Source: Bacteroidota bacterium (GTDB lineage: Bacteria; Bacteroidota; Bacteroidia; JABEUT01). Taken from it: DNA of 64,000 nt. This document shows positions 48,165-64,000 of the stretch, one piece after another (the first letter of the stretch is position 1; each line of letters opens with the position of its first letter). A model generated the notes under the pieces. The model worked only from the letters and a program-made list of their open reading frames with translations. It was not told where the DNA came from and did not search any database. The position numbers and the translations under genes are program-made. Where the stretch lies: assembly GCA_013285655.1 (NCBI GenBank), contig JABDHI010000004.1, positions 7,772 to 71,771 of the forward strand, in the 5' to 3' direction.

Positions 48165-50087
48165 ATGAGTAACCCTAAGGTTAAGCAACTTGAGAGTAAT
48201 ATGCTGGATGCTATACTAACTACCCCCCAAAAGGCAAAGCGTGTTATAGTTATAGCCTGTGTATTGCTGTATGCCCAAATATTGTGGTTTGGCCTTGTTC
48301 ACCTCGATGATTATGGTTTTGTGCAATGGGGTACTGATTTGCTCAGGCTATCGAATATTCCCAAATTTTTTACTCACGATGTGTTTTGGGTACTGGGCGA
48401 CCGACATAAATTCAGCGGCTTCTTTTATCGCCCTTTGCAAGACGTAGCATATTCTATTTGTAATGCAGTATCGCCGGGGCATGTATGGGCATACCATTTA
48501 ATGAGCCTGCTTTTGCACATAGCTACTTCGGTAGCCTTGTTTAACCTGCTTAAAGAACTGGGTTATAAAGTACAAGCTTGTTTGGTGTTTGCATTGTTGT
48601 ATGCAGTCCACCCTGTATTAACCGAGGCCGTTGCCTGGATAGGCGGGGTGGGTGACCAGTTAGCTGCATTGTTCTCTATACTATCTGTTACTTATTTTAT
48701 AAAGCTGGTAAAGGCAGAGGGCGTATTAAATATAAAGTACTTGCTCATACATATCATTGCATTTATAGGTGCCATGTTCTCGAAAGAGATATGTATTGGG
48801 CTCATCCCAGTATGCCTGTTCTTGTTTTTTATGTTTCGTAAAGGCAAAGCAATAAATAGTGTTGTAATACCTGCACTGGCATGGTTTGTAATTATTGCGG
48901 CATACTTGCTTGCCCGTAATAATGCTATACCACCAACTAAGGTCAATTTTGTTTTGGCAGTTCTCGAATCATTCCGTATGAATGCCTTTATTGTGTTTGA
49001 ATACATTGAGAAAATGTTTTTACCATACCGGTTAAGTCCAGCAGTAACTCGACCGGATGCGCACTTTGTGTTAGGAGCTATACTATCAATTACTTTATTA
49101 GTTCTGTTATTTATGCGCAAGCGTTTTACTATTATGGCTGTATTGGGTTTGGTATGGTTCCTTGTCTTTTTGTTGCCGGCATTTATTGAGTTATATCCTA
49201 ACGAGCCTTTTTATGCATTCGAGCATCGTATGTATCTGCCAATGATTGGTATGCTAATTGTTGTAATGGAATTGATGAATATAAACAACATTAATATAAA
49301 TACTCAGCCTTATAAATATGGCTTTGGCGCAGTTATTGTCGTTTTCTTTTTAATCGGGTTTTCGTATGGCCGCAGTTACCGCAACCCTAACGTGTTTTAC
49401 GAACGTGCAATTGCAGGCTCACCAAGCTCAGTAATTATTTACAATACCCGTGCTGAGGTATTGTTGGATGAAAACAACTATGCTGAAGGAATAGAGGCTT
49501 ACAAAAAGAGTTTCGAATTCAGGAAGGATCCGGCTACTTCGGGTAAAATAGCTTACATATATCAGAAGAACTTAAACGACCCTTTACATGCTATTGAATG
49601 GTTTAAGACAACCTTTAGTATCGATACCAATTCGGTGCCGGCAGCAGTGTGCATAGCCGATAATTATATGAACCTGGTAAAAGATACTGCCAATGCCGGT
49701 GTTTGGTATAACAGGGCGCTAAAAATTGATGATAAGAATGTATTTGCTTTGGTAGGTATTGGCATTATAAACCTGAATAACGGACACGTACCAATGGGCA
49801 GAGGAATGATATTACAAGCACTGGCAATTGATTCAACTAACCTGACAGGATTTATGAACCTTGCCATTTCGTACTACAAGGAAGGAAATATATTAATGGC
49901 TATTACCTATCTGAATAAAGCCTATTATTTTGCCCCCGATGATGCCAATGTGCAACGCAACCTGATGATATGTTATTACAGGATAAACGATTATACCTTA
50001 ACCCAAAAGTTTGCAGCTTTATGCGCACAGAGACACAACCCCATACCACAAGAGATCATAAATTATTTGAATAGCAGAGTGAAATAA
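48165..50087 (+). CDS. polytopic membrane protein with C-terminal TPR repeats (GT-C / TMTC-like putative protein O-glycosyltransferase)
   Basis: N-terminal multi-TM domain with 'LVHLDDYGFV...LSNIPKFF...FYRPLQD', paralleling the 59645 gene. The C-terminal third is TPR-like. ATG at 48165 preferred over the tracked TTG at 48150. Confidence 0.55.
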   Translation: MSNPKVKQLESNMLDAILTTPQKAKRVIVIACVLLYAQILWFGLVHLDDYGFVQWGTDLLRLSNIPKFFTHDVFWVLGDRHKFSGFFYRPLQDVAYSICNAVSPGHVWAYHLMSLLLHIATSVALFNLLKELGYKVQACLVFALLYAVHPVLTEAVAWIGGVGDQLAALFSILSVTYFIKLVKAEGVLNIKYLLIHIIAFIGAMFSKEICIGLIPVCLFLFFMFRKGKAINSVVIPALAWFVIIAAYLLARNNAIPPTKVNFVLAVLESFRMNAFIVFEYIEKMFLPYRLSPAVTRPDAHFVLGAILSITLLVLLFMRKRFTIMAVLGLVWFLVFLLPAFIELYPNEPFYAFEHRMYLPMIGMLIVVMELMNINNININTQPYKYGFGAVIVVFFLIGFSYGRSYRNPNVFYERAIAGSPSSVIIYNTRAEVLLDENNYAEGIEAYKKSFEFRKDPATSGKIAYIYQKNLNDPLHAIEWFKTTFSIDTNSVPAAVCIADNYMNLVKDTANAGVWYNRALKIDDKNVFALVGIGIINLNNGHVPMGRGMILQALAIDSTNLTGFMNLAISYYKEGNILMAITYLNKAYYFAPDDANVQRNLMICYYRINDYTLTQKFAALCAQRHNPIPQEIINYLNSRVK

Positions 50088-50090
50088 GGT

Positions 50091-51533
50091 TTACTTTTTG
50101 CTTTTCACATTCAACACTACAAGCTCGTTCCAACTATCCGCAATAGTGCAGTTAAACTTGCTCAATACATAGTTCTTGATAGTGTCGTTAGCCGCTATCA
50201 GCATTGTCGGGGCTTGAATGGCTGACGTGTCTGCTATTTTTATCTGCTGGCCCTTATCCTGTAGTTTATATTTATAAAACAGCATGGGTCCTAAGTAACT
50301 ATTATCGCAAATGGTATAATTGTTAAAATTAGCACCCTGTTTTTCTTTTTCAAATAAGTAATCTTCCACTCTTTCAATTTTCCTGTCGCCTGGCTTCCTG
50401 TCGTTATCATGCGACTGCTTGATTGCAAAGTATATCGGGATGGAGAATACAATGATAATTGCTAATGGCATTGTTGCTTTTGAAGGATCAAATGCTGGTA
50501 AGTTTTGCAGGCAATAGTAAATGGCATAACCGGTTACAATTGCTAGATAAGGGTAAAGCGGCATATCATACCATTCGAGCTTGGTAACGGAATAAGATAT
50601 GATAAATAGGTATACTGTTATTAGCGATATGCACCAAATGAAAATGGTCTTATTATGGAACATGGCTTTATGTTTCCAGAGTAAAATTGCGCCTACTATA
50701 AAAATAGCAACCCAACATGAAAACCGATAATTATATAAATTATTGAAATAGAAATCGAACGGCTCTTTATGAAGGTCTATAATAGCGAATAACCGTGATG
50801 CATCGTTGTTAATAATGTTGCTAATATAATTTGGGTCATATACTTGACGCGATAGAATAAAAAAGCCTGCAATAAGTAAAAATGCCAGTTTGCCTAAGTA
50901 CAGCCCTTTTAGGGAAAAAGCCGGGATGAATTTCTTTTGATAAACTACAATGAACAGGTGTGCCGGAACGAACAAAAGGGCGGCTACGCTTTTGGCACCA
51001 AAGGCTAAGGCAAGGAACAAGAAATAAAGAAAAACATTTCGGCTTTTGTTCTCTTCAGAATTTATGAAATAGAAAAAGTAAATATTCGATAGGAATAAGA
51101 ATAAATTCAATATAGCATCAGCATCTCCTGTACGGGAAGTATGAAAATGCACAAACCCAATACTTGTAATAAGAATTAAAAACGAACACCAAGCCCATAA
51201 AGTTGAACCTGATTTTTTTATGAATACAAACAAGAAGTAAGCGATTAAGATTCCGGCTATAGCAGACGGTAATCTTATTGCAAGCTCATTATATCCTAAT
51301 ATGGTTACAAACAGCATTTGTATCCAGCGTGTCAACAAAGGCTTGGTTGTTAGGTTATCAATACCTCCATTAAAATAAGGCACAAAGTAGTGATGGCCGT
51401 GCAGCATTTCATAAACGTTAACTGCATAGGTCGACTCGTCCCAAGGTCGGATAGAAAAACTGTCGAGCCTTAATAGGAATACTAGGTATAGTAAAACACC
51501 CAATACAATAAAACTAATGACTTTACCCTTCAA
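50091..51533 (-). CDS. glycosyltransferase family 39/83-like (ArnT/PMT-type GT-C) membrane protein
   Basis: 'RPWDESTYAVNVYEML...TKPLLTRW' is the typical ArnT/PMT first-loop motif. 480 aa, polytopic. Confidence 0.75.
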   Translation of the reverse strand: MKGKVISFIVLGVLLYLVFLLRLDSFSIRPWDESTYAVNVYEMLHGHHYFVPYFNGGIDNLTTKPLLTRWIQMLFVTILGYNELAIRLPSAIAGILIAYFLFVFIKKSGSTLWAWCSFLILITSIGFVHFHTSRTGDADAILNLFLFLSNIYFFYFINSEENKSRNVFLYFLFLALAFGAKSVAALLFVPAHLFIVVYQKKFIPAFSLKGLYLGKLAFLLIAGFFILSRQVYDPNYISNIINNDASRLFAIIDLHKEPFDFYFNNLYNYRFSCWVAIFIVGAILLWKHKAMFHNKTIFIWCISLITVYLFIISYSVTKLEWYDMPLYPYLAIVTGYAIYYCLQNLPAFDPSKATMPLAIIIVFSIPIYFAIKQSHDNDRKPGDRKIERVEDYLFEKEKQGANFNNYTICDNSYLGPMLFYKYKLQDKGQQIKIADTSAIQAPTMLIAANDTIKNYVLSKFNCTIADSWNELVVLNVKSKK

Positions 51534-51680: not shown

Positions 51681-53168
51681 ATGCTGTTTAATTCTATTCA
51701 GTTTCTTTTTTTCTTTCCTATTGTTACCCTTATTTATTTTTTGCTGCCTCATAAATGGCGATGGTTGCATTTGTTAGTTGCTAGTTGTGTTTTTTATATG
51801 GCTTTTATACCGGTGTATATACTTATACTGGTGTTTACCATTGTTATAGATTATATAGCAGGGATACTAATAGAGAATGCAGTCGGCAAAAAGCGAAAAT
51901 GGTTTTTAACCATGAGCATTATTGCCAATGTGGGTGTATTGTGCGTGTTTAAGTATTATAATTTTTTTGTGAATAATATCGATGAGCTATTGAAGTCATT
52001 TAATATTAACACGCATCCGATACCGTTACTAAATATAATTCTGCCATTGGGCTTGTCGTTCCACACTTTTCAGGCTATGAGCTACACCATTGAGGTGTAT
52101 AGGGGCAACCAAAAAGCTGAACGCCATTTTGGTATATATGCGCTGTACGTTATGTTCTACCCGCAATTGGTTGCAGGCCCCATCGAGAGGCCACAGAATC
52201 TGCTTCACCAGTTTCGAGAAGAGCATAGGCCTGAGCCTAATAACATTACCGAAGGCCTTAGGCTAATGCTTTGGGGTATGTTTAAAAAAGTAATTATTGC
52301 CGATAGGCTAGCAATACTAACCGTACCTGTTTTTAATAATCCGCACAACTATCCGGGTATATCGTTACTGATAGCTACTATCATGTTTTCCTTTCAAATT
52401 TTTTGCGATTTTTCCGGATACTCTGATATTGCCCTGGGTTCGGCTAAGGTTATGGGTTTTACCTTAATGAAGAATTTTAACTGGCCTTATGTGTCGAGAA
52501 GCATGTCGGAATTTTGGAAGCGCTGGCACATATCACTTTCAACATGGTTTAAAGACTACCTGTATATATCATTGGGAGGTAACCGTGTTTCGGTGCCAAG
52601 GTGGTATTTTAATCTGTTCTTTGTGTTTTTGGTAAGCGGTTTTTGGCATGGTGCCAACTGGACCTTTATTGCATGGGGTGCCTTGCACGGGTTTTACCTT
52701 GTTTTTGCAATAGTTACTCAAAATACGGGTACTAGACTTTCTTCTGCTATCGGCCTCAATAATAATTCGTGGGTACACAAAGTAGGGCATGCTGTTATAA
52801 CCTTTGGCCTGGTTGCTTTTGCCTGGATCTTTTTCAGGGCAAATACCATTGCCGATGCGTGTTTTATTATTCGCAAAATACCATCTGCTTTTAACGACCT
52901 GTTGGTAACTATCCACACGCACCGGTTAGGGCTTTGGAATATATGGGCGATAAAAGGAGTAAGAAGCCCTCAGTACCTCGTTATAAGTTTTGGCCTAATA
53001 TGCTTTATACAACTATTGGCAATTAAAAAAGTGCGTTATAAGCTAATATCTGTTTTTAAAAGAATGCCTTTTGTAGTAAGGTTATTTGTCTATTACCTTG
53101 TGGCATTAGTCATAATACTTTCGTTTATAGATACTGCACCCACATCATTTATATACTTCCAGTTTTAA
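51681..53168 (+). CDS. MBOAT family O-acyltransferase (AlgI/DltB/PatA-like)
   Basis: 'EFWKRWHISLSTWFKDYLYISLGGNR' and 'SGFWHGANWTF' (conserved MBOAT His). 495 aa, polytopic. Confidence 0.9.
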   Translation: MLFNSIQFLFFFPIVTLIYFLLPHKWRWLHLLVASCVFYMAFIPVYILILVFTIVIDYIAGILIENAVGKKRKWFLTMSIIANVGVLCVFKYYNFFVNNIDELLKSFNINTHPIPLLNIILPLGLSFHTFQAMSYTIEVYRGNQKAERHFGIYALYVMFYPQLVAGPIERPQNLLHQFREEHRPEPNNITEGLRLMLWGMFKKVIIADRLAILTVPVFNNPHNYPGISLLIATIMFSFQIFCDFSGYSDIALGSAKVMGFTLMKNFNWPYVSRSMSEFWKRWHISLSTWFKDYLYISLGGNRVSVPRWYFNLFFVFLVSGFWHGANWTFIAWGALHGFYLVFAIVTQNTGTRLSSAIGLNNNSWVHKVGHAVITFGLVAFAWIFFRANTIADACFIIRKIPSAFNDLLVTIHTHRLGLWNIWAIKGVRSPQYLVISFGLICFIQLLAIKKVRYKLISVFKRMPFVVRLFVYYLVALVIILSFIDTAPTSFIYFQF

Positions 53169-53169
53169 C

Positions 53170-54180
53170 ATGAGGTACATATTGCTAAAAATAGTCCTGC
53201 TGTTGTTCCTGGTAATGTTTACGTTCCATTGGGTAAGTACGTATTGTTCATCTAACTATGGTAATTATGTGTATGCAATGCGCGATAAACATAAAAGAGC
53301 CAATGCATTGCCATCACCCAAGCTTATATTAGCAGGAGGTTCTTCGCTTGCATTTGGTATCAATTCAAAAATGATACAGGATAGCTTGCATATACCGGTT
53401 GCCAATTTGGGCCTTCACGCAACCTTGGGTATTGCCTTTGAGTTAGCACAAGCCGAAATGGTAGCTAAAAAAGGAGATAAGGTAGTATGGTCGTTTGAGT
53501 ATTATGTAAGCGATAAAGAGGCGATTGATGGAGGGAATGCTACCAAAGTATTGGGTTACGATGCTATGCCCGGTATTTATGATTTTTTGACACCGATGGG
53601 CAAGCTTAATTTTTTCCAGCTTAAGTACCTTTACCTTACCGGGGTTAATAAAGAAATGCATTACATACACCAGGGTGAAACGCAAGCGCCACGGCCGTTA
53701 AAATGGTTAAGTAATATAGCTGTTCTTCTTCCGGGCGATGTTCATAGTATTACAGTTGATTCGGCTACCGATGTGTACATACGCCGATCGTTCGATGAAA
53801 ATGGCGATATAAAATCAAGCCTGATTGAGGGGCACTTAAAGGAACTGGGTGATAATATGAAACACAACCAGGGCTATAAGGATGAAATAGAAATTATAAA
53901 TGAGTATGCCGATAGGTTAAAAGCCAAGGGTGTTGATGTGTATTATCTATTTCCTCCGTTTGATGTGAGTCAGCGCGAAAAAGATGGCACGATGCTCGAT
54001 ACTATTGAAGCTGAATACAGAAAGGGGCTTCACATTCCTATACTTAATTCGGTAGATGACGCATATTACCCCGATAGCCTGTTTTATAATACCGTTTACC
54101 ACCTTAATGCTACTGGCAGGCAACAAAATACACTAAAATTAATAGCAGATCTTAAACCTGTGATAAAGAACCCAAAATAA
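53170..54180 (+). CDS. membrane-anchored partner of the MBOAT protein (SGNH/DltD/AlgJ-like, putative)
   Basis: N-terminal TM anchor. 'LILAGGSSLAFG' is block-I-like with a candidate Ser, and 'NTVYHLNATG' is block-V-like with a candidate His. Starts 1 nt after the MBOAT stop. Confidence 0.4.
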   Translation: MRYILLKIVLLLFLVMFTFHWVSTYCSSNYGNYVYAMRDKHKRANALPSPKLILAGGSSLAFGINSKMIQDSLHIPVANLGLHATLGIAFELAQAEMVAKKGDKVVWSFEYYVSDKEAIDGGNATKVLGYDAMPGIYDFLTPMGKLNFFQLKYLYLTGVNKEMHYIHQGETQAPRPLKWLSNIAVLLPGDVHSITVDSATDVYIRRSFDENGDIKSSLIEGHLKELGDNMKHNQGYKDEIEIINEYADRLKAKGVDVYYLFPPFDVSQREKDGTMLDTIEAEYRKGLHIPILNSVDDAYYPDSLFYNTVYHLNATGRQQNTLKLIADLKPVIKNPK

Positions 54181-56791: not shown

Positions 56792-56872
56792 AAAGGCAAA
56801 ATAAGGTAAAATACTTGGATGTAAACTCCCATGCTAACTTTTTCATGGCTTTCGTTAGCATCAATATATTAA

Positions 56873-56901
56873 ATAAAAAAGAGGACTGTTATATCCTCTT
56901 C
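56873..56901 (-). terminator. rho-independent terminator after the collagen-like gene
   Basis: Stem 'aagagga' (56879-56885) pairs with 'tcctctt' (56894-56900). On the minus strand the hairpin is followed by a T-run (the A-run at 56874-56880 on the plus strand). Confidence 0.6.
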
Positions 56902-56966
56902 TTTATTATTTATCGCTATGCGGCCATTTAAATTTCAGGAAAGTTCCTGAAAAACTCACAAAGCTT

Positions 56967-59033
56967 TTACCATGTAATTACTGCGCTACCATTATGTGCG
57001 CCCATATAATTAGTACCCGTTTTGGTTGCAGTTGTATTGTTAAAATAAGAACCGCCGCCACCGCCGCCGCCGCCGGTATTATCATTACCACCGCCGCCGC
57101 CATTGTATCCGCCGCCACCGCCGGCGCCGCTAAAGTTGCCGGCGCCGCCGCCGCCATATCCGCCGCCGCCGCCATATCCAGAGCCCGAGTATCCTGCTCC
57201 CCCCTGGCCTGGATTAGTTCCTGCTAAGGGATAAATACCACCACCACACGCATATGTGCCTGTTACATTCGCACTAGATTGGCCCCATCCGCAACCACCG
57301 GCACCGGGCCCATTGTTTGAATTGCTTCCTGAGGCTCCTGCACTGGAACCTGTACCGGCTGCGCCATTGCCACCTGTACCATTTGTACCCGCTTCAAGCG
57401 CCGCTGCAGAACCATTAGATGTTTGTCCGTTACCGCCAATTGATGTGGAAGAGAGCCCTGCACCGCCACCGCCACCGGCAACAACTAGCAATGTCGAGCT
57501 TGTTGCATCCCATATAAACGTACCGCCGCCGCCGCCTGCTCCATTGTTATACAGACCATCAGAGCCGCCGGATCCTACCAGGATATCTAACACATGCCCG
57601 GCAGTTACTGCAATACTTCCTGAAACCATTGCTCCCAAGCCGGGTGGAGTTCCACTTTGAGAGCCATCCTCTATATCAAATCCTCCATTCCCCCCTGTAG
57701 CAGTAATCGTTAACGTAGTAATTCCTGTGGGAACAGTAAATGTAACAACCACGCCGGTGAAACAATATGTCTGACAGCCATGTATACCTGGAGGAGTGGA
57801 CCATGTTCCATCACCTCTCCAATAAGTAGTTGAACTTGCACTAGTACCACTACCTAAATTAGTAACAGGCAAATTACCAGTTACATCGTTTGCAAGGTTT
57901 ACAGCACTAAACGATGGATTCCCGGCAGCGTTACCATGCAACACAGTTGTTGTTGTCCCTTGGTTTGCAAACAATGAGCCCGTGAGTGAAGGAGTAAAAT
58001 AGGTTGGTGCTGCACCTGAACCTGTATTGTTTCCGAGTATAGTATTAGCGCCGGCATTAGTTAGTGTATAAGAAATAGAAGGAGTAGTTGTTGAATTAGA
58101 AACACTGGTTGTAAAAATCGGAGATAAGTTTCCTGATGCAACTGAAGTAACACTACCTGAACCAGTTGCACCTGTAGCACCGGTAGCTCCATTGGCACCT
58201 ACAGCACCAGTAGCACCCGTTGCACCAGTAGCTCCATTAGAACCTGCTGTGCCCGTTGCTCCGGTTGCTCCTGTAGCACCAGTAGAGCCATTAGAACCTG
58301 CTGTGCCCGTTGCTCCGGTTGCTCCTGTAGCACCAGTAGCTCCAGTAGCTCCATTAGAGCCTGCTGTACCTGTAGCTCCAGTTGCACCATTAGAACCTGC
58401 TGTGCCAGTAGCACCAGTTGCTCCTGTAGCACCATTGGCTCCATCAGAACCTGCTGCACCTGTTGCACCAGTGGCACCTGTTACACCATTAGAACCCGCT
58501 GTACCAGTAGCACCTGTTGCTCCGTCATTTCCATTTGCACCAGTAGCGCCGGTTGCTCCGTCATTTCCTGTAGCGCCCGTGGCACCTGTTGCGCCCGTGG
58601 CTCCGGTTGCACCTGGTGTTCCGCTTGCAGCTGCATATAATGCATAAGGCACACTCATTAACTGAGTGGTTGATGTTACCGTATAACTTGTTCCTCCTGT
58701 AGGATCGGTTTGCACCATTATATAATAAGGACCATTTGCCCAATTAATAGAAGCAAATGTTCCACTAACCACATTTCCATTACCTATTACAATGGTTACT
58801 AAACCATTTGCATTTGATGTAGGGGTTTGAGTTTCGCTATAAACAGATGTACCTGTTGAACTGCCCTGCAGTATACTTATTTGCATGCCCACAGGAGCAC
58901 TTTGCACAAGTTGGTTACTTGCATTGCGCACTACCGCCTGGTAGGTAAAGCCTTGAGGCGCCTGCGCCATAACTGAAGATGCCAGGCATACACTTGCTGC
59001 TATGGCTGTAAGTCCCAGAGTAGTTTTTCTCAT
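56967..59033 (-). CDS. secreted fibre-like protein: N-terminal domain, proline-free collagen-like (G-A-T)n region, tail-fibre-like linker, C-terminal glycine-rich domain
   Basis: Signal peptide '[24 protein letters not shown]'. About 50 uninterrupted Gly-X-Y triplets. Then '...[27 protein letters not shown]' and a Gly-rich domain ('[12 protein letters not shown]...[11 protein letters not shown]...') ending in poly-Gly runs. The ATG overlaps the upstream gene's stop (ATGA). Confidence 0.85.
58164..58622 (-). repeat. in-frame 9-bp-periodic tandem repeat encoding Gly-X-Y triplets (mostly GAT, punctuated by GTAGSN units)
   Basis: The DNA reads as repeated ggt/gga-gct/gca-acn units on the minus strand. 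Protein residues about 138-290. I counted about 51 triplets by hand. Confidence 0.9.
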
Positions 59034-59521
59034 TTACTTTTAATTATTTTAAATGTCTTTACTTCATTATTGTTATCATATACCTTTATCAGGTATTCGC
59101 CATAAGCCATATTAGTAAGATCTATTTCAGTAATCAAAGCACTTATATTATGCTGCATTATTTGCTGCCCAAGTATATTAGTAACTGCATAGTTATAACT
59201 GCTTTGGCCGCTTATAGCCTGTAATTCTAAGTATAATGTATTTATAGTAGGATTAGGGTATGCCTTGCAGCTAAGGGCCACATTGGTATTCTCTACTCCT
59301 GTAAGTATCTGTATTTCGTAAGGTTGTTGAACACCTTGTGTTATAGCGCCATTAGCGTTAGTTGTGTTAATATAATTGGGCTGGCCAATACTAAAACTTA
59401 CTGATCCATTACTTCCTGAGGCATCTCCCCCGGCAACTAGTGCATCTTGCTGAGCATTAACATTCGCAACAGCAACAACTAAAAAGATTAAGCAGGAAAT
59501 TGAGTAGTAAATTTTTCTCAT
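59030..59521 (-). CDS. small secreted protein with T9SS type-A C-terminal sorting domain
   Basis: Signal peptide '...[10 protein letters not shown]'. A short domain '[40 protein letters not shown]'. A CTD '[15 protein letters not shown]...[23 protein letters not shown]'. ATG at 59521 preferred over the tracked TTG at 59530. Confidence 0.8.
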
Positions 59522-59644
59522 TAAGCACAATTACTTTAGCGGAAAACTATGCTAAAAATAAATTCTTTTGTATAGTGTCAAGCATGGTTTAACGATGAAT
59601 TAATATTCAAAACATAAAAGTTATTGAAAATCAACGTGAAAAAA

Positions 59645-61933
59645 TTACTGCGCTTTTGAATTCTGAGCCTCCGCAAGGTTGTTTTTTATAAGTGCATTTG
59701 AAGGGTCAAGCTTAAGTGCCTGTTTGCCTGTATATAGGGCACTATCCCACATGTTCATTTTGTTATAGGAAGCACACATATTATTATATGCTAAAACATA
59801 TTTCGGATTTAGCTTTAGTGATTGTTTGCATGCACCTATAGCGTTTTCATAAAGGCCCTGGTTGTAATACAGTAGGCTTAAATTCAAATAGGCTTCGGGT
59901 GTTTTTTGTTTTTCAGCAATTGCAATAAGGCTGTCGGTTAACACCAATTGCTGATGCGCGTATAAGTAATTATTTCTGGCCAATGTATAATTGCTGTTTG
60001 TTTTCAGCGCCTGTTCAAACGCATCCATCGCTTTTTGCCATTCGCCCATCATATTATATGCCGAACCAATGTTATTATAAGCTGCATCATAACCAGGTTT
60101 CAATTTAACAGCCTCCCTACAGGCATCTATACAGTTTTTATACATCTTTTTATTGTAATACAGTAAACTAAGGTCAAGGTAATTTTCGGGTGTAGGATTC
60201 TGTTTTACCCGCGCTTTCTGCTCTTCCAATTTTCCTTTTCTGTTTTCTGCATTGGCCAGGTATTGTTTTGCAATTGCATCTTCAGGCAATAATTGTAATG
60301 TTTCATTTGCCAGTGTTTTAAGTTCATGCCAATCTTCTTCGTCCTGGTATATGGCCATAAGCATATAGGCAGAGCTAATATCGGCAGAAGAAATACTTAA
60401 TACTTTTTTCAACAATGGAATAGCATCCGCGTTACGGCCGCGTTCGTGCAAATATTTGGCATAGAAGTAACTTAACGAAGGCACATCTGGTCCGTACTTC
60501 AGCGCAAGCTTGTAATAATGTTCAGCAGTATCATATTGCAACTGTGCATATTTATCAATGGCCAAATTGCCATACGCATAAGCGTAATATGGCATCAATG
60601 TAATTGCTTTCCTGTAATATATTTCAGCTGCTGCATAATCTCCTTTATTCATTAATGTAAGGCCGTAATTCATAATGGCCCTGCCATTTCGCGGGCTTTT
60701 TTCTATTACATCTTTCCATAAGCTTTCTTCGGTATGCCATACCATATTTCGACTATATGTTCCTGCTGCATTCAATAAAACAATAACTACCAGCGCCGTT
60801 TTAAATACTGTTGCAAGCTTGTTACCCCAACTTTGCCATGCAAGGGCAATTAACCAACCAGTGGCCATTACAAGCCCAATATATGGGAAAAAGGCTCTGT
60901 GATCGTTAACTACTTCGGCCAATGGTATTAATGAGGTAGGTAACAAAGCAATAATAAACCAGGCAAGGCCAAATAACACCGGCGCATATGTAGGCCTTTT
61001 AAACAGTCTTATGCAAATTGTTACTATAGCGATTAAGAATAGTATGCCCATTAAAAACCTCCAATCAACAACAGATGCCAGGGGAATCCAGTCAGAATCG
61101 GCACTTACACCAAAAGGGAAGAAGTATGTAAGAAAGTAATATAAGGCAACAAAAGGTTGGGTAATAGTATAATTATAAAAAACGCCGCCGGTAACAAAAG
61201 TGGTTGAGCCTAATTTTGATTGTAACTCATACAGGCCCAGGCATACCACTAAAACCGGAAGAACCGGTACCAGAGAGCCCTTTATTTTGTTGAAGAGAGT
61301 ACCTTCTTTACTCTCGAACAATATAGTATACAAAACCAGCAACACCGGAAAAACAATTACCGTTGGTTTAAACAAAAAACCTATTGCTACAGGCACTATG
61401 TACAAATACCATTTACGTAAACCGGGCTTGTATACATATAATACCATACCCAACATAAGCCAGCAGGTAGAAATAGAATCGGATGATGAAGAGGTATAGT
61501 TTATAACACTTGAATTAATAGTGGCAACCATATACCATCCTGTAGCGAATAAGGCGAAGTATTTGTTTGCCGGCTGTTCGGCAGTACTATTAAATACTTT
61601 AATTAATAAAAAATAAAGGCAAAAACCTTGCAATAAAAAGAACAAAAAAACAGGCACGTGGTAAAACACCGGATTAAAGCCACCCATTGCATAATCTAAC
61701 GCATACAAAGTAGTGAGCATTGGCCTGTATGATTGATTAGCCGGTAAGGAACTAAAGGTTTGAGCGCTTTTGAAAAAGGATGGAATGTTTTTGAGGCTAC
61801 GTATATAGCTGTTGTTTACAATGGTATGCATATCGTCAAAATGAAAGCTATTGGTAAAATGATTAGAATAAGCCATCAGTACAAGAAAAAGCAAACCCGC
61901 AATGCACCAATTAAATGTCTTGTCTTTTTTCAT
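59645..61933 (-). CDS. polytopic membrane protein with long C-terminal TPR array (GT-C / TMTC-like putative protein O-glycosyltransferase)
   Basis: 'FHFDDMHTIVNN...LKNIPSFF...SYRPML' followed by about 10 TM helices, then multiple TPR units ('AYYNLG/AYNNIG'-type). ATG at 61933 is preferred because a -7 box lies at 61952-61945. The tracked start at 62002 is a GTG. Confidence 0.6.
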   Translation of the reverse strand: MKKDKTFNWCIAGLLFLVLMAYSNHFTNSFHFDDMHTIVNNSYIRSLKNIPSFFKSAQTFSSLPANQSYRPMLTTLYALDYAMGGFNPVFYHVPVFLFFLLQGFCLYFLLIKVFNSTAEQPANKYFALFATGWYMVATINSSVINYTSSSSDSISTCWLMLGMVLYVYKPGLRKWYLYIVPVAIGFLFKPTVIVFPVLLVLYTILFESKEGTLFNKIKGSLVPVLPVLVVCLGLYELQSKLGSTTFVTGGVFYNYTITQPFVALYYFLTYFFPFGVSADSDWIPLASVVDWRFLMGILFLIAIVTICIRLFKRPTYAPVLFGLAWFIIALLPTSLIPLAEVVNDHRAFFPYIGLVMATGWLIALAWQSWGNKLATVFKTALVVIVLLNAAGTYSRNMVWHTEESLWKDVIEKSPRNGRAIMNYGLTLMNKGDYAAAEIYYRKAITLMPYYAYAYGNLAIDKYAQLQYDTAEHYYKLALKYGPDVPSLSYFYAKYLHERGRNADAIPLLKKVLSISSADISSAYMLMAIYQDEEDWHELKTLANETLQLLPEDAIAKQYLANAENRKGKLEEQKARVKQNPTPENYLDLSLLYYNKKMYKNCIDACREAVKLKPGYDAAYNNIGSAYNMMGEWQKAMDAFEQALKTNSNYTLARNNYLYAHQQLVLTDSLIAIAEKQKTPEAYLNLSLLYYNQGLYENAIGACKQSLKLNPKYVLAYNNMCASYNKMNMWDSALYTGKQALKLDPSNALIKNNLAEAQNSKAQ

Positions 61934-61944
61934 CTTAGGATATT

Positions 61945-61952
61945 CAAAATTA
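61945..61952 (-). promoter_or_regulatory. candidate -7 promoter box (TAATTTTG) for the GT-C/TPR - T9SS - collagen-like unit
   Basis: Reverse complement of 'caaaatta' is TAATTTTG, which matches TAnnTTTG. 11 nt lie between the box and the ATG at 61933. Confidence 0.35.
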
Positions 61953-62093
61953 TAATTATTTCCACGTTCTTTATTCGCATATACCTTTGTGCCATTAACC
62001 ACAACTGCATTTTATTTATTATTGTGAAAATGAATATTCAATGAAAAATGAATAAAGACATTTTTGTATATTGCGTTGGTCTTAAATAAGTTA

Positions 62094-64000
62094 ATGCGGA
62101 AATTTTACATTGTAACCACTCTTTTTTGCCTGTTTACAGGTGCCTTAATTGCCCAATCCCCATTAAGGGGAGAGCAAGCAGAAGTACTATGGAACGATAA
62201 TGAAACCAAGTGGGAAAGCAATATGCTTTCTGTCCTGCAAACTACTCCGGATGAGTTACATACCTTTTTACAATACAACCAGACTGATTTTTTTGCCGTA
62301 AGGAATCGTTTCTTTACGAAAGCGATGAGCGGGAAAATGGATAGCGGCAAGATAGCTGCCTTTTTTAATCACTTACAGACAAAATACAAAGCCCTATACA
62401 CTACTTACTTATATACAAAGCAGAATTATCCGGCTACAATAGCATCTCATATTGCCGAACAGAATTATTCAAAAAACGACAGGCGGCCTTCGGGTACGTG
62501 CCCCACAGCTTGCAATAATATTGATTTTGAAAATGGCTCACTTTCAGGCTGGACGGCTTGTTTTGCAAAGAATAATGAGTTTACAACCAATGCAACCGAT
62601 TTTTCAACCACTGCCTTTACCTGCAGTGGTATTTTGGGAAATGTAACGGAAGCTGCTTATGATAATAGCACTACCAGTTACCAGGTATCATTGGTAACCG
62701 GCTCAGCTGTCGACCCGATAGTAGGCCCTGCCTTGCCCATGGTTGCGCCGGGAGGTGGTAAATACTCTGCATGTGTTGGCGATGGTGTTGGTATAAAATA
62801 TGGTGTTGCAGAATTAAGCAACCAGTTCACAGTATCGGCCAGCTCACCAATTTTAACATTGCAGTATGCAGCCGTACTTGAAAATCCTAATCATACCTAT
62901 TATCAGCAACCTTGGTTTCAAATTGAAGTGCTTGACCAGAATAATAACGAAATAAGCGCATGCGGACAATATTTTGTTGTTTCAGCGGCGGGTTTGCAAG
63001 GTTTCCATGCTGTTTATTATCCAATAGATGTCGATTCGGTTTACTACAAACCATGGACAACAGTTTACGTGCCCTTATATAAATATGTGGGCCAATGCGT
63101 AACCGTAATTTTTAAAACTGCTGATTGTGCCCAGGGCGGGCATTTCGGGTATGCATACGTTGATGCGTCCTGCAGTAATACAGGTGTTATTTCTTCGGCA
63201 CCAGCCTATTGCGGACAAACCTATACGTTAACCGCTCCGGCAGGCCAATCTTCGTATACCTGGAGCGGCCCTTGTATCTCAGGGCCTGTTAACCAACAGT
63301 CGGTTGCTGTTACTTGTGCAGGTACCTATAGTGTAATTGTTAAAGGTTCAGCTACATGTACCGATACCCTTTCGGTTAATGTCAGTAATGTTGCGGGCCC
63401 TCCACCGGTACCAAATTTTACTACCGATACCGTATGTTCGGGTTCTGTTACACATTTTACCAATAGGTCAAACCCGCTTAGTGGCGCCGGTGTTAAGTTT
63501 TACTGGGATTTTTACAACAATGGCAAAATTGAAGACTCAACCGTAAATCCTACTTTTAAGTTTACCACTACCGGTATGCATCAGGTAAGGCTTTTAGAAG
63601 AAGTGAATGGCTGCGAAGCTGATACTATTATGAATGTATTCGTAGCTCCGCTTCCTTATATAATATCCTCTTCTTTCTCTTTATATTACTGTTCAAAGGG
63701 TTCTCCTGTTACCCTTACTGCTTCCAGTGGCCTTACTTACTTATGGAATACCGGTGCTACAACAAGCTCTATTACTGTTACACCTACTACCGTTACAACA
63801 TATTCGGTAAAAAGTACAGAAGGTGCTTGTGTGTCAACGGCCAGTGCTGCCATCACTCCTTCCGTATCACCAAGCAGTAGTATTACATCATTTACTAATG
63901 TAACCTGTAATAATGCCTGCAATGGTAAGGCAACGGTAACAGCCAACGGCGGAACTACTCCATATACCTATGCATGGCATACTGCACCGGCCTTTTATAC
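62094..64000 (+). CDS. large secreted adhesin-like protein, N-terminal part only (PKD-like domain and SprB-type repeat; runs off the right edge)
   Basis: Not in the ORF track because it has no stop in the window. Hand translation from ATG 62094 gives MRKFYIVTTLFCLFTGALIAQ... and stays open to 64000. Contains 'NIDFENGSLSGW', a PKD-like 'VKFYWDFYNNGKIEDSTVNPTFKFTTTGMHQV', and an SprB-like 'NVTCNNACNGKATVTANGGTTPYTYAW'. Confidence 0.75.
   Translation, partial: MRKFYIVTTLFCLFTGALIAQSPLRGEQAEVLWNDNETKWESNMLSVLQTTPDELHTFLQYNQTDFFAVRNRFFTKAMSGKMDSGKIAAFFNHLQTKYKALYTTYLYTKQNYPATIASHIAEQNYSKNDRRPSGTCPTACNNIDFENGSLSGWTACFAKNNEFTTNATDFSTTAFTCSGILGNVTEAAYDNSTTSYQVSLVTGSAVDPIVGPALPMVAPGGGKYSACVGDGVGIKYGVAELSNQFTVSASSPILTLQYAAVLENPNHTYYQQPWFQIEVLDQNNNEISACGQYFVVSAAGLQGFHAVYYPIDVDSVYYKPWTTVYVPLYKYVGQCVTVIFKTADCAQGGHFGYAYVDASCSNTGVISSAPAYCGQTYTLTAPAGQSSYTWSGPCISGPVNQQSVAVTCAGTYSVIVKGSATCTDTLSVNVSNVAGPPPVPNFTTDTVCSGSVTHFTNRSNPLSGAGVKFYWDFYNNGKIEDSTVNPTFKFTTTGMHQVRLLEEVNGCEADTIMNVFVAPLPYIISSSFSLYYCSKGSPVTLTASSGLTYLWNTGATTSSITVTPTTVTTYSVKSTEGACVSTASAAITPSVSPSSSITSFTNVTCNNACNGKATVTANGGTTPYTYAWHTAPAFY

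Follow-up and report, generated by a model that had tools for sequence, protein, structure and literature searches.

Do the genes that surround a collagen-like fibre gene in a soil member of the Bacteroidia encode a dedicated machinery for that fibre, or do they merely stand next to it? The question is raised by a stretch of 64,000 nt, here called the window, from a Bacteroidota bacterium (JABEUT01; assembly GCA_013285655.1, contig JABDHI010000004.1, positions 7,772-71,771 of the forward strand). Its minus strand carries three co-directional genes, for an enzyme with a glycosyltransferase C (GT-C)-like membrane domain followed by tetratricopeptide repeats (TPR), for a small protein with a type IX secretion system (T9SS) C-terminal domain (CTD), and for a fibre protein with a Gly-X-Y stalk. 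A preliminary description, made from the sequence, had proposed that these form one dedicated module in which the enzyme glycosylates the Thr residues of the stalk and the small protein handles export or anchoring, and the three open reading frames (ORFs) are present as it claimed.

Our answer is that the locus probably encodes a cell-surface fibre system in which two partnerships, separable in evolution, stand side by side, one between the small T9SS partner and the base of the fibre and the other between the enzyme and the collagen-like stalk, a reading to which we assign a rough probability of 0.55. Of the original proposal, the two linkages are supported, partner with fibre and enzyme family with collagen stalk, and the fixed dedicated three-gene module is not.

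A conserved pair of small T9SS protein and fibre

The ORF of the small protein (59030..59530, minus strand) opens at TTG, with the likely start at ATG 59521, giving a protein of 163 aa (59030..59521, minus strand) formed of a signal peptide, a module of ~50 aa and a type A CTD. The hydrophobic N-terminal leader ends in VNAQ, and the module, conserved in the family alignment as GGDAxGxxGSVS(Y/F)SIGQ...QGVQQPYEI, lies at ~59297-59449 (minus strand). The CTD (59033-59263, minus strand; Por_Secre_tail/TIGR04183) matches PF18962 with 37.8 bits (E 2.4e-9, cut-off 27) and TIGR04183 with 38.1 bits (E 1.1e-9, cut-off 23), and the T9SS itself is present in the genome, with SprA (TIGR04189) scoring 2396 bits on contig C13.

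Taking the best locus per genome with a full-length homologue, a gene for the N-terminal domain of the fibre (N-domain) adjoins the small-protein gene in 19/21 loci and lies immediately downstream in 18 of those, whereas loci that match the generic CTD only have an N-domain neighbour in 0/8. In the 18 pairs that were measured, the small gene and its fibre neighbour are separated by -4 to 110 nt, with ATGA overlaps among them, and more than 30 such pairs are found in the homologue listings. In the window the two genes overlap by ATGA at 59030-59033, as had been described and as the ORF coordinates agree. The suggestion that the small T9SS protein and the fibre belong together is thus upheld by a conserved and tightly linked pair, and gene order across these genomes shows what can be called a conserved two-gene cassette, in which the small gene is, to judge by the overlap, translationally coupled to the fibre gene. 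Other genomes carry the cassette by itself, with no enzyme gene beside it. From this pairing we infer that the partner module may bind the fibre N-domain and may supply a T9SS signal and/or a surface tether.

Linkage of the enzyme family to collagen-like genes

Co-occurrence was assessed in 61 genomes (the window's own and 60 relatives), to which 58 further carriers were added, and 80 enzyme loci were inspected; a single enzyme sequence gave no matches when used to search the genome contigs and an alignment-based query was needed. In the 61 genomes the enzyme is associated with collagen-like genes (Pfam Collagen, PF01391; [[17,4],[14,26]], p 7e-4), and in 43 genomes from 43 families it is associated with collagen-rich genomes ([[8,4],[1,30]], odds ratio 60, p 2.8e-5). 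PF01391 is likewise present in 56/58 further carriers. N-domain cassettes that have no collagen stalk (e.g. in G046 and G023) occur in genomes without the enzyme.

The same link is seen in the neighbourhood of the enzyme gene, with a collagen-like gene in the flanks of 7/58 enzyme loci, where chance alone predicts 1.1-3.1. In two Hydrotalea genomes and one deltaproteobacterial metagenome-assembled genome (MAG) the enzyme adjoins the sole collagen-like locus (chance ~0.5% each), and in a Nitrospiraceae MAG it adjoins one of two (chance ~0.5%). Furthermore, the proportion of Thr at the Y position of collagen-like runs is 0.49 in carriers and 0.21 in non-carriers (Mann-Whitney p 8e-4). The proposed link between the GT-C/TPR enzyme and Thr-rich collagen-like proteins is therefore supported by co-occurrence, by a neighbourhood enrichment that spans three phyla and by the Thr-at-Y contrast, and these genome comparisons show that the enzyme family tracks collagen-like genes both phyletically and by neighbourhood.

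A separate observation concerns the deltaproteobacterial MAG, where a Gly-X-Thr array of ~4.7 kb (L124:1-4700) beside the GT-C/TPR gene is split into many short frames; these may be several small genes or may result from frameshift errors in a long-read assembly.

Predicted fold and family of the enzyme

The enzyme ORF (59645..62002, minus strand) opens at GTG, with the likely start at ATG 61933, which gives 762 aa. Residues 1-420 (60674..61933, minus strand) form the membrane glycosyltransferase domain, with ~11 transmembrane (TM) helices and the family-invariant motifs FHFDD, NQSYRP, SADSDW and NDHR, and residues 421-762 plus the stop codon (59645..60673, minus strand) form the TPR domain (Pfam TPR_1/2/8/16, E down to 1e-27), with the repeats spanning about aa 420 to 750. 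Searching the PDB with a profile of the whole enzyme returned TPR proteins only (OGT and consensus TPR proteins), and against Pfam the enzyme gave a weak PMT_2 match under the cut-off (E 0.0019), which was also the only match of the membrane domain (E 6e-4 to 2e-3).

Because the membrane domain is barely recognised by sequence models, its fold was tested by structure prediction. An AlphaFold model built on 27 homologues had a predicted local distance difference test score (pLDDT) of 87.3, and the best 12 Foldseek matches in the PDB were all GT-C enzymes (ArnT, PglB, AglB, STT3, Pmt4 and GPI mannosyltransferase I), with a probability of 0.98-1.00 and a TMq of 0.40-0.55. The predicted model thus confirms a GT-C fold for the membrane domain. 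Right after TM1, in the first periplasmic loop, lies FHFDD (aa 30-34), a motif that does not vary among 27 sequences; NQSYRP shares that loop and is invariant in the family alignment. The two correspond to motifs M1 (DD) and M2 (SHKSYRP) of the TMTC proteins (PMC7801869), and the D-W and H-R motifs of the enzyme sit at the expected loops when compared with TMTC M1-M7. With ~11 helices preceding the repeats, the TPR domain would be periplasmic if the N-terminus is cytoplasmic, as in TMTCs.

The usual partner that produces a polyprenyl-phosphate monosaccharide for such transfer is a glycosyltransferase family 2 (GT2) enzyme. A gene for a GT2 resembling polyprenyl-phosphate-sugar synthases lies 1-6 kb from the enzyme in 31/80 homologous loci, and some of these neighbouring GT2s are fused to a GtrA/DPMS transmembrane domain. 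The enzyme family is large, numbering 67,142 representatives at E 1e-3, 37,425 at E 1e-10 and 4,802 at E 1e-30. In five loci from Emticicia and relatives (L056:10308-11886, L061, L065, L069 and L087) a class I methyltransferase gene (PF13489) comes after the GT-C/TPR gene and is succeeded by a convergent GT2 gene, and a methylated sugar or another modified donor is a possibility suggested by the methyltransferase neighbour.

The window also contains a second TMTC-like GT-C/TPR gene (48165-50087, plus strand), with the motif HLDD...FYRPL, which stands tail to tail with a PMT_2-type GT-C gene (50091-51533, minus strand; PF13231, E 6e-13). The family of this paralogue is found mostly in genomes that do not have the first enzyme family.

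Architecture of the fibre protein

The fibre ORF (56967..59033, minus strand) encodes 688 aa, beginning with a signal peptide (aa 1-23) and an N-domain of 113 residues (aa 24-136; together 58626..59033, minus strand) that ends in SVPYALYA. When eight such N-domains from Bacteroidia, including that of the window, were searched, all matched NCBIfam NF053851 (Bdello_MAT_N, E 7e-13 to 4e-8), with no other family matching seven of them and only far weaker ones matching the eighth. These profile matches, which lie below the curated cut-off, indicate homology between the fibre N-domain and that of the Bdellovibrio mosaic adhesive trimer (MAT) fibres. Across the class the N-domain occurs in up to ~20 genes per genome, with variable stalks and tips behind it.

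The collagen-like stalk (58155..58622, minus strand) consists of 52 uninterrupted Gly-X-Y triplets and matches PF01391 with 63.7 bits (E 1e-17, cut-off 27.2). The preliminary description was right that about 50 triplets run without interruption, that most of them contain Thr (32/52 at Y, 62%) and that the stalk is essentially proline-free (one Pro), but its statement that nearly all are G-A-T was too strong, as this triplet accounts for 30/52 (58%). This is the only long Gly-X-Y run in its own assembly, where short runs of 7-8 triplets are also seen on contigs C6, C30, C60 and C66. In a DNA run from a related strain (X3), 9 nt, exactly one Gly-X-Y triplet, are missing at window position 58333, which points to a stalk length that varies between strains.

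Behind the stalk lies a Ser/Thr/Asn-rich middle region (aa 294-425; 57759..58154, minus strand), a unit that is repeated in the homologues P0001 and P0002, and then the C-terminal tip of 263 residues (aa 426-688, with the stop codon 56967..57758, minus strand). The tip is predicted to have the TNF-like plus glycine-rich fold of the ALK/LTK type: for a model of moderate confidence (pLDDT 64.6), ALK/LTK glycine-rich domains take all of the first 21 places among the Foldseek matches in the PDB, with E values as low as 7e-8 and, in the top 19, a TMq of 0.52-0.61. Pfam gave no match on the N-domain, the middle region or the tip, the tip homologue P0014 matches PF12810 (E 8e-6), and PF26696 is found as a precomputed annotation on homologues. 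The fibre contains no sequon of the general Bacteroidota O-glycosylation system, D(S/T)(A/I/L/V/M/T), and glycosylation of the fibre by that system was rejected on this ground.

Signals and transcription at the locus

A Bacteroidota-type -7 box, TAATTTTG, an exact match to TAnnTTTG, lies at 61945..61952 (minus strand), 11 nt ahead of the likely start codon of the enzyme gene, and the sequence confirms the box that had been reported there. It is the sole exact TAnnTTTG on the minus strand within 56800-62100, a scan that agrees with the earlier finding of no exact box before the small-protein or fibre gene; the window-wide mean is 0.45 such boxes per kb per strand. The best near-match to the -7 consensus, TAGTTTTC (59549-59542), falls in the spacer of 123 nt between the enzyme gene and the small gene (59522..59644, minus strand) and might act as a promoter for the cassette itself. 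Where a terminator had been described after the fibre gene there is a terminator-like hairpin (AAGAGGA...TCCTCTT) at 56879-56900, followed by TTTTATTT, the whole element occupying 56871..56900 (minus strand) on the 3' side of the fibre gene.

In a soil metatranscriptome there is one near-identical RNA contig for each cassette gene (59256-59484 in the small gene and 57818-57970 in the fibre gene). This shows transcription of the cassette, although the metatranscriptome evidence, consisting of contigs only, is weak.

Genomic context of the enzyme gene and alternative readings

Several observations weigh against the reading that we favour. Same-genus orthologues of the enzyme (five genomes, 50-58% identical) and one on a metagenomic contig (61%) have no fibre nearby, and in these six relatives the gene sits in its usual context of phoU, lipoprotein, LuxE-like, GT-C/TPR and lytB. 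Collagen-like genes are present in 14/40 enzyme-less genomes, one of which (G037) is collagen-rich, and the phyletic test ignores phylogeny; lifestyle could drive both traits. Within the 64-kb window there is no GT2 donor synthase; the enzyme has no match to the Pfam TMTC family (DUF1736), and a hidden Markov model profile of its membrane domain found zero matches among PDB sequences. The N-domain scores (33-49 bits) stay under the curated Bdello_MAT_N threshold of 60, and of the 162 positions in the profile only 3-107 are matched. Finally, the enzyme gene has no RNA contig in the same soil metatranscriptome, a weak negative as contigs cannot show absence.

A dedicated, fixed three-gene module is not borne out, since the enzyme lies elsewhere in same-genus genomes and only Hydrotalea repeats the three-gene set, there in a divergent arrangement; a three-gene operon conserved among close relatives was accordingly ruled out. 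In the genome of the window the LuxE-like and lytB genes are only 45 bp apart (C53:15852-17032) with no enzyme gene between them, which indicates that the enzyme gene was moved or lost from its canonical site.

In the first alternative reading the neighbourhood of enzyme and fibre would be coincidental, the enzyme acting instead on Ser/Thr-rich T9SS adhesins (e.g. the SprB-repeat protein at 62094), on periplasmic proteins, or on a glycolipid or polysaccharide, and its co-occurrence with collagen would reflect adhesin-rich free-living bacteria. The usual site in the genus, beside LuxE-like and lytB and far from fibres, agrees with this, as do the 72/80 enzyme loci without a collagen-like gene in their flanks, the enzyme-less genomes that carry collagen-like genes, and an SprB-repeat protein ~2 kb from the enzyme orthologue in G009. 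In the window, the divergent gene at 62064-63998 encodes PKD-like and SprB repeats, runs off the window and is preceded by an exact TAnnTTTG at 61982 (plus strand); this adhesin has five of the general O-glycosylation sequons as compared with none in the fibre.

Mere coincidence is harder to reconcile with three independent low-copy lineages in which the enzyme adjoins the sole or near-sole collagen-like gene, and with a Thr-at-Y contrast that is specific to the collagen sequence itself. Nor is the link confined to one type of fibre, holding across collagen-like genes with differing N-domains; in two Bacteroidales MAGs the enzyme lies directly beside collagen-like genes with a different N-domain. 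The paralogous GT-C/TPR family shows no association with collagen-like genes, and genome size was ruled out as a confounder, as it does not differ between carriers and non-carriers (means of 3.24 and 3.40 Mb in the two groups). On balance we consider a coincidental neighbourhood unlikely and prefer a genuine partnership of enzyme and collagen-like stalk.

A second alternative concerns the small protein, which could be an independent T9SS cargo or a periplasmic assembly factor (for trimerisation or folding) that is co-expressed with the fibre but does not carry or anchor it; the fibre would then surface by another route or stay in the periplasm or on vesicles. Precedent exists in the MAT fibres of Bdellovibrio, which reach the surface without a T9SS (PMC10769870). 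Other roles are also hinted at by two same-genus genomes (L033:658-1905 and L036:613-1902) in which the partner reaches 415-429 aa through a long extension at its N-terminus that starts like a lipoprotein and includes a hydrophobic segment, with an N-domain gene still following. However, near-invariant gene order and tight spacing suit stoichiometric partners, and the pairing follows the N-terminal module of the partner, not the generic CTD. In addition, the fibre has no T9SS CTD of its own, although homologues of its tip domain are found either at fibre ends or heading ordinary T9SS cargo. We therefore regard both forms of this alternative as improbable, compared with a partner that engages the fibre.

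Descent of fibre and partner from a prophage or phage-tail-like remnant (a tail fibre with its assembly protein) is very improbable and was ruled out by gene context and signal peptides. PHROGs tail-fibre families do match the collagen part (E down to 6e-34), phrog_22713 matches the tip (E 4e-10) and phage fibre tips follow ALK/LTK as weaker fold matches of the tip. Most of the PHROG matching, however, is due to the collagen region with its low complexity, and the flanking genes are not of phage type (lnt and RidA-like on one side, the adhesin on the other). Both proteins, moreover, begin with a Sec signal peptide and the partner ends in a T9SS CTD, while throughout the class the cassette is found on the chromosome in multiple copies.

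Two further features were noted around the enzyme genes. In one same-genus locus (L014:326-853, equal to L052) the gene for a lipoprotein of 175 aa, which includes a short collagen-like segment (GKDGADGAPGAQGPQGPTG), is convergent to the enzyme orthologue at a distance of 50 bp. In the window, at 51681-54180, an MBOAT gene is followed 1 nt on by a gene for a 336-aa membrane-anchored SGNH-like protein, and similar pairs of MBOAT and partner lie ~5 kb from the GT-C/TPR orthologue in two same-genus loci (L013 and L015).

A model for the fibre system

In animal collagen, modifications of this kind must come before trimer formation. The fibre would be a MAT-like mosaic trimer composed of a Sec signal peptide, a base domain, a Gly-Ala-Thr stalk, Ser/Thr-rich repeats and an ALK-type tip, and its chains would be exported by Sec. 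The TPR domain of the enzyme could then engage the repetitive Gly-X-Thr chain, and the GT-C domain would take a monosaccharide from its polyprenyl-phosphate carrier and place it on the Y-position threonines, either ahead of trimer formation or in its course. Such sugars would lend stability and hydration to a triple helix that cannot rely on proline or hydroxyproline, and glycosylation of BclA is thought to stabilise its triple helix via hydration (PMC8968730). The glycosylated chains would trimerise, the small partner would bind the N-domain, and the complex would pass through the T9SS to be tethered at the surface (after CTD removal) with the ALK-like tip outward. In this scheme, what the enzyme does, with which sugar and at which site, and what part the small partner plays are all things that we infer from predicted domains and gene neighbourhoods.

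The enzyme would serve the collagen-like fibres of a genome generally and not just that of the window. In the present lineage its gene would have left the usual site and now stands beside the only long collagen-like gene of the assembly.

A bolder form of this scheme would make the bacterial TMTC-like GT-C/TPR family a dedicated collagen Thr O-glycosyltransferase, which in three or more phyla would play the part that prolyl hydroxylation plays elsewhere by allowing proline-poor Gly-X-Thr triple helices to assemble beyond the cytoplasm, and at the same time make the ~160-aa T9SS protein an adaptor that carries CTD-less MAT-type fibres and forms the surface element of their N-domain. Taken jointly, these two statements are tentative and rather doubtful, and we put them forward as a possibility.

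Relation to known systems

The enzyme is most readily compared with the metazoan protein O-mannosyltransferases TMTC1-4 (CAZy GT105; PMC7801869), with which it shares a GT-C domain with an odd number of TM helices followed by a non-cytoplasmic TPR domain, a DD motif in the first external loop with S-Y-R-P shortly after, and a lipid-phosphate-monosaccharide donor, implied here by the GT2 genes near its relatives. It differs in being bacterial, in its lack of a DUF1736 match with PMT_2 below the cut-off, and in its substrate, which is cadherin domains for the TMTCs and, as proposed here, a Gly-X-Thr stalk. The streptococcal pairs GtrB+PgtC2 and PgfS+PgfM1 (PMC12041528) work along similar lines, a GT2 making an undecaprenyl-phosphate sugar that a GT-C enzyme transfers extracytoplasmically to Ser/Thr-rich regions, and in S. 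mutans the adhesins that serve as substrates are encoded in a cluster together with the Pgf genes (PMC12041528). However, these GT-C enzymes belong to other families (PgtC2 is of the YfhO family), and the systems are Gram-positive and act on disordered Ser/Thr tracts instead of collagen-like repeats.

Glycosylation of BclA-type exosporium proteins is carried out by soluble nucleotide-sugar transferases in the mother cell and not by a periplasmic GT-C enzyme. These proteins of Bacillus and C. difficile otherwise resemble the fibre in having a collagen-like stalk with Thr at Y and a globular C-terminal domain, and their stalks are known to be glycosylated and thought to be stabilised thereby (PMC8968730); they are, however, spore structures of Firmicutes that involve no T9SS.

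For the fibre as a whole, the MAT fibres of Bdellovibrio bacteriovorus (PMC10769870) offer the closest likeness in layout, with a signal peptide, a conserved beta-rich N-domain, a variable trimeric stalk and swappable tips that include TNF-like domains, and with multi-copy, mosaic genes. In contrast, the stalk here is collagen-like, the N-domain scores below the family cut-off, a small T9SS partner gene precedes the fibre gene, and no role in predation is implied. The tip shares its predicted fold with the TNF-like and glycine-rich domain (PF12810) of ALK/LTK, which supplied its first 21 matches, but belongs to a bacterial fibre instead of a receptor kinase, with no direct Pfam match and a model of limited pLDDT. 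To our knowledge, Bdellovibrio cannot have a T9SS partner.

In the literature that we searched, there was no description of a TMTC-like enzyme tied to collagen-like proteins, of a small T9SS partner for CTD-less fibres, of T9SS piggy-back export or of a collagen-like T9SS fibre, and searches on O-oligosaccharyltransferases of Bacteroidota bacteria and on glycosylated Gram-negative collagen-like proteins of this kind likewise gave no match. This suggests that both partnerships are new to the literature searched.

Implications

Bacterial homologues of TMTC are very numerous and no substrate for them is reported in the literature searched. The locus and its relatives name a chemically sensible class of substrate for such TMTC-like enzymes, namely Gly-X-Thr collagen-like stalks, and there are culturable carriers in Hydrotalea sandarakina (DSM 23241), which has the same three genes and one collagen-like gene, and in Emticicia agri. 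The small T9SS partner, in turn, may explain by what route a fibre that bears no T9SS signal gets out of the Bacteroidota cell. It may also explain what the MAT-type N-domain binds: this domain should bind a surface element, whose identity is stated to be unknown (PMC10769870), and the partner could be that element in Bacteroidota.

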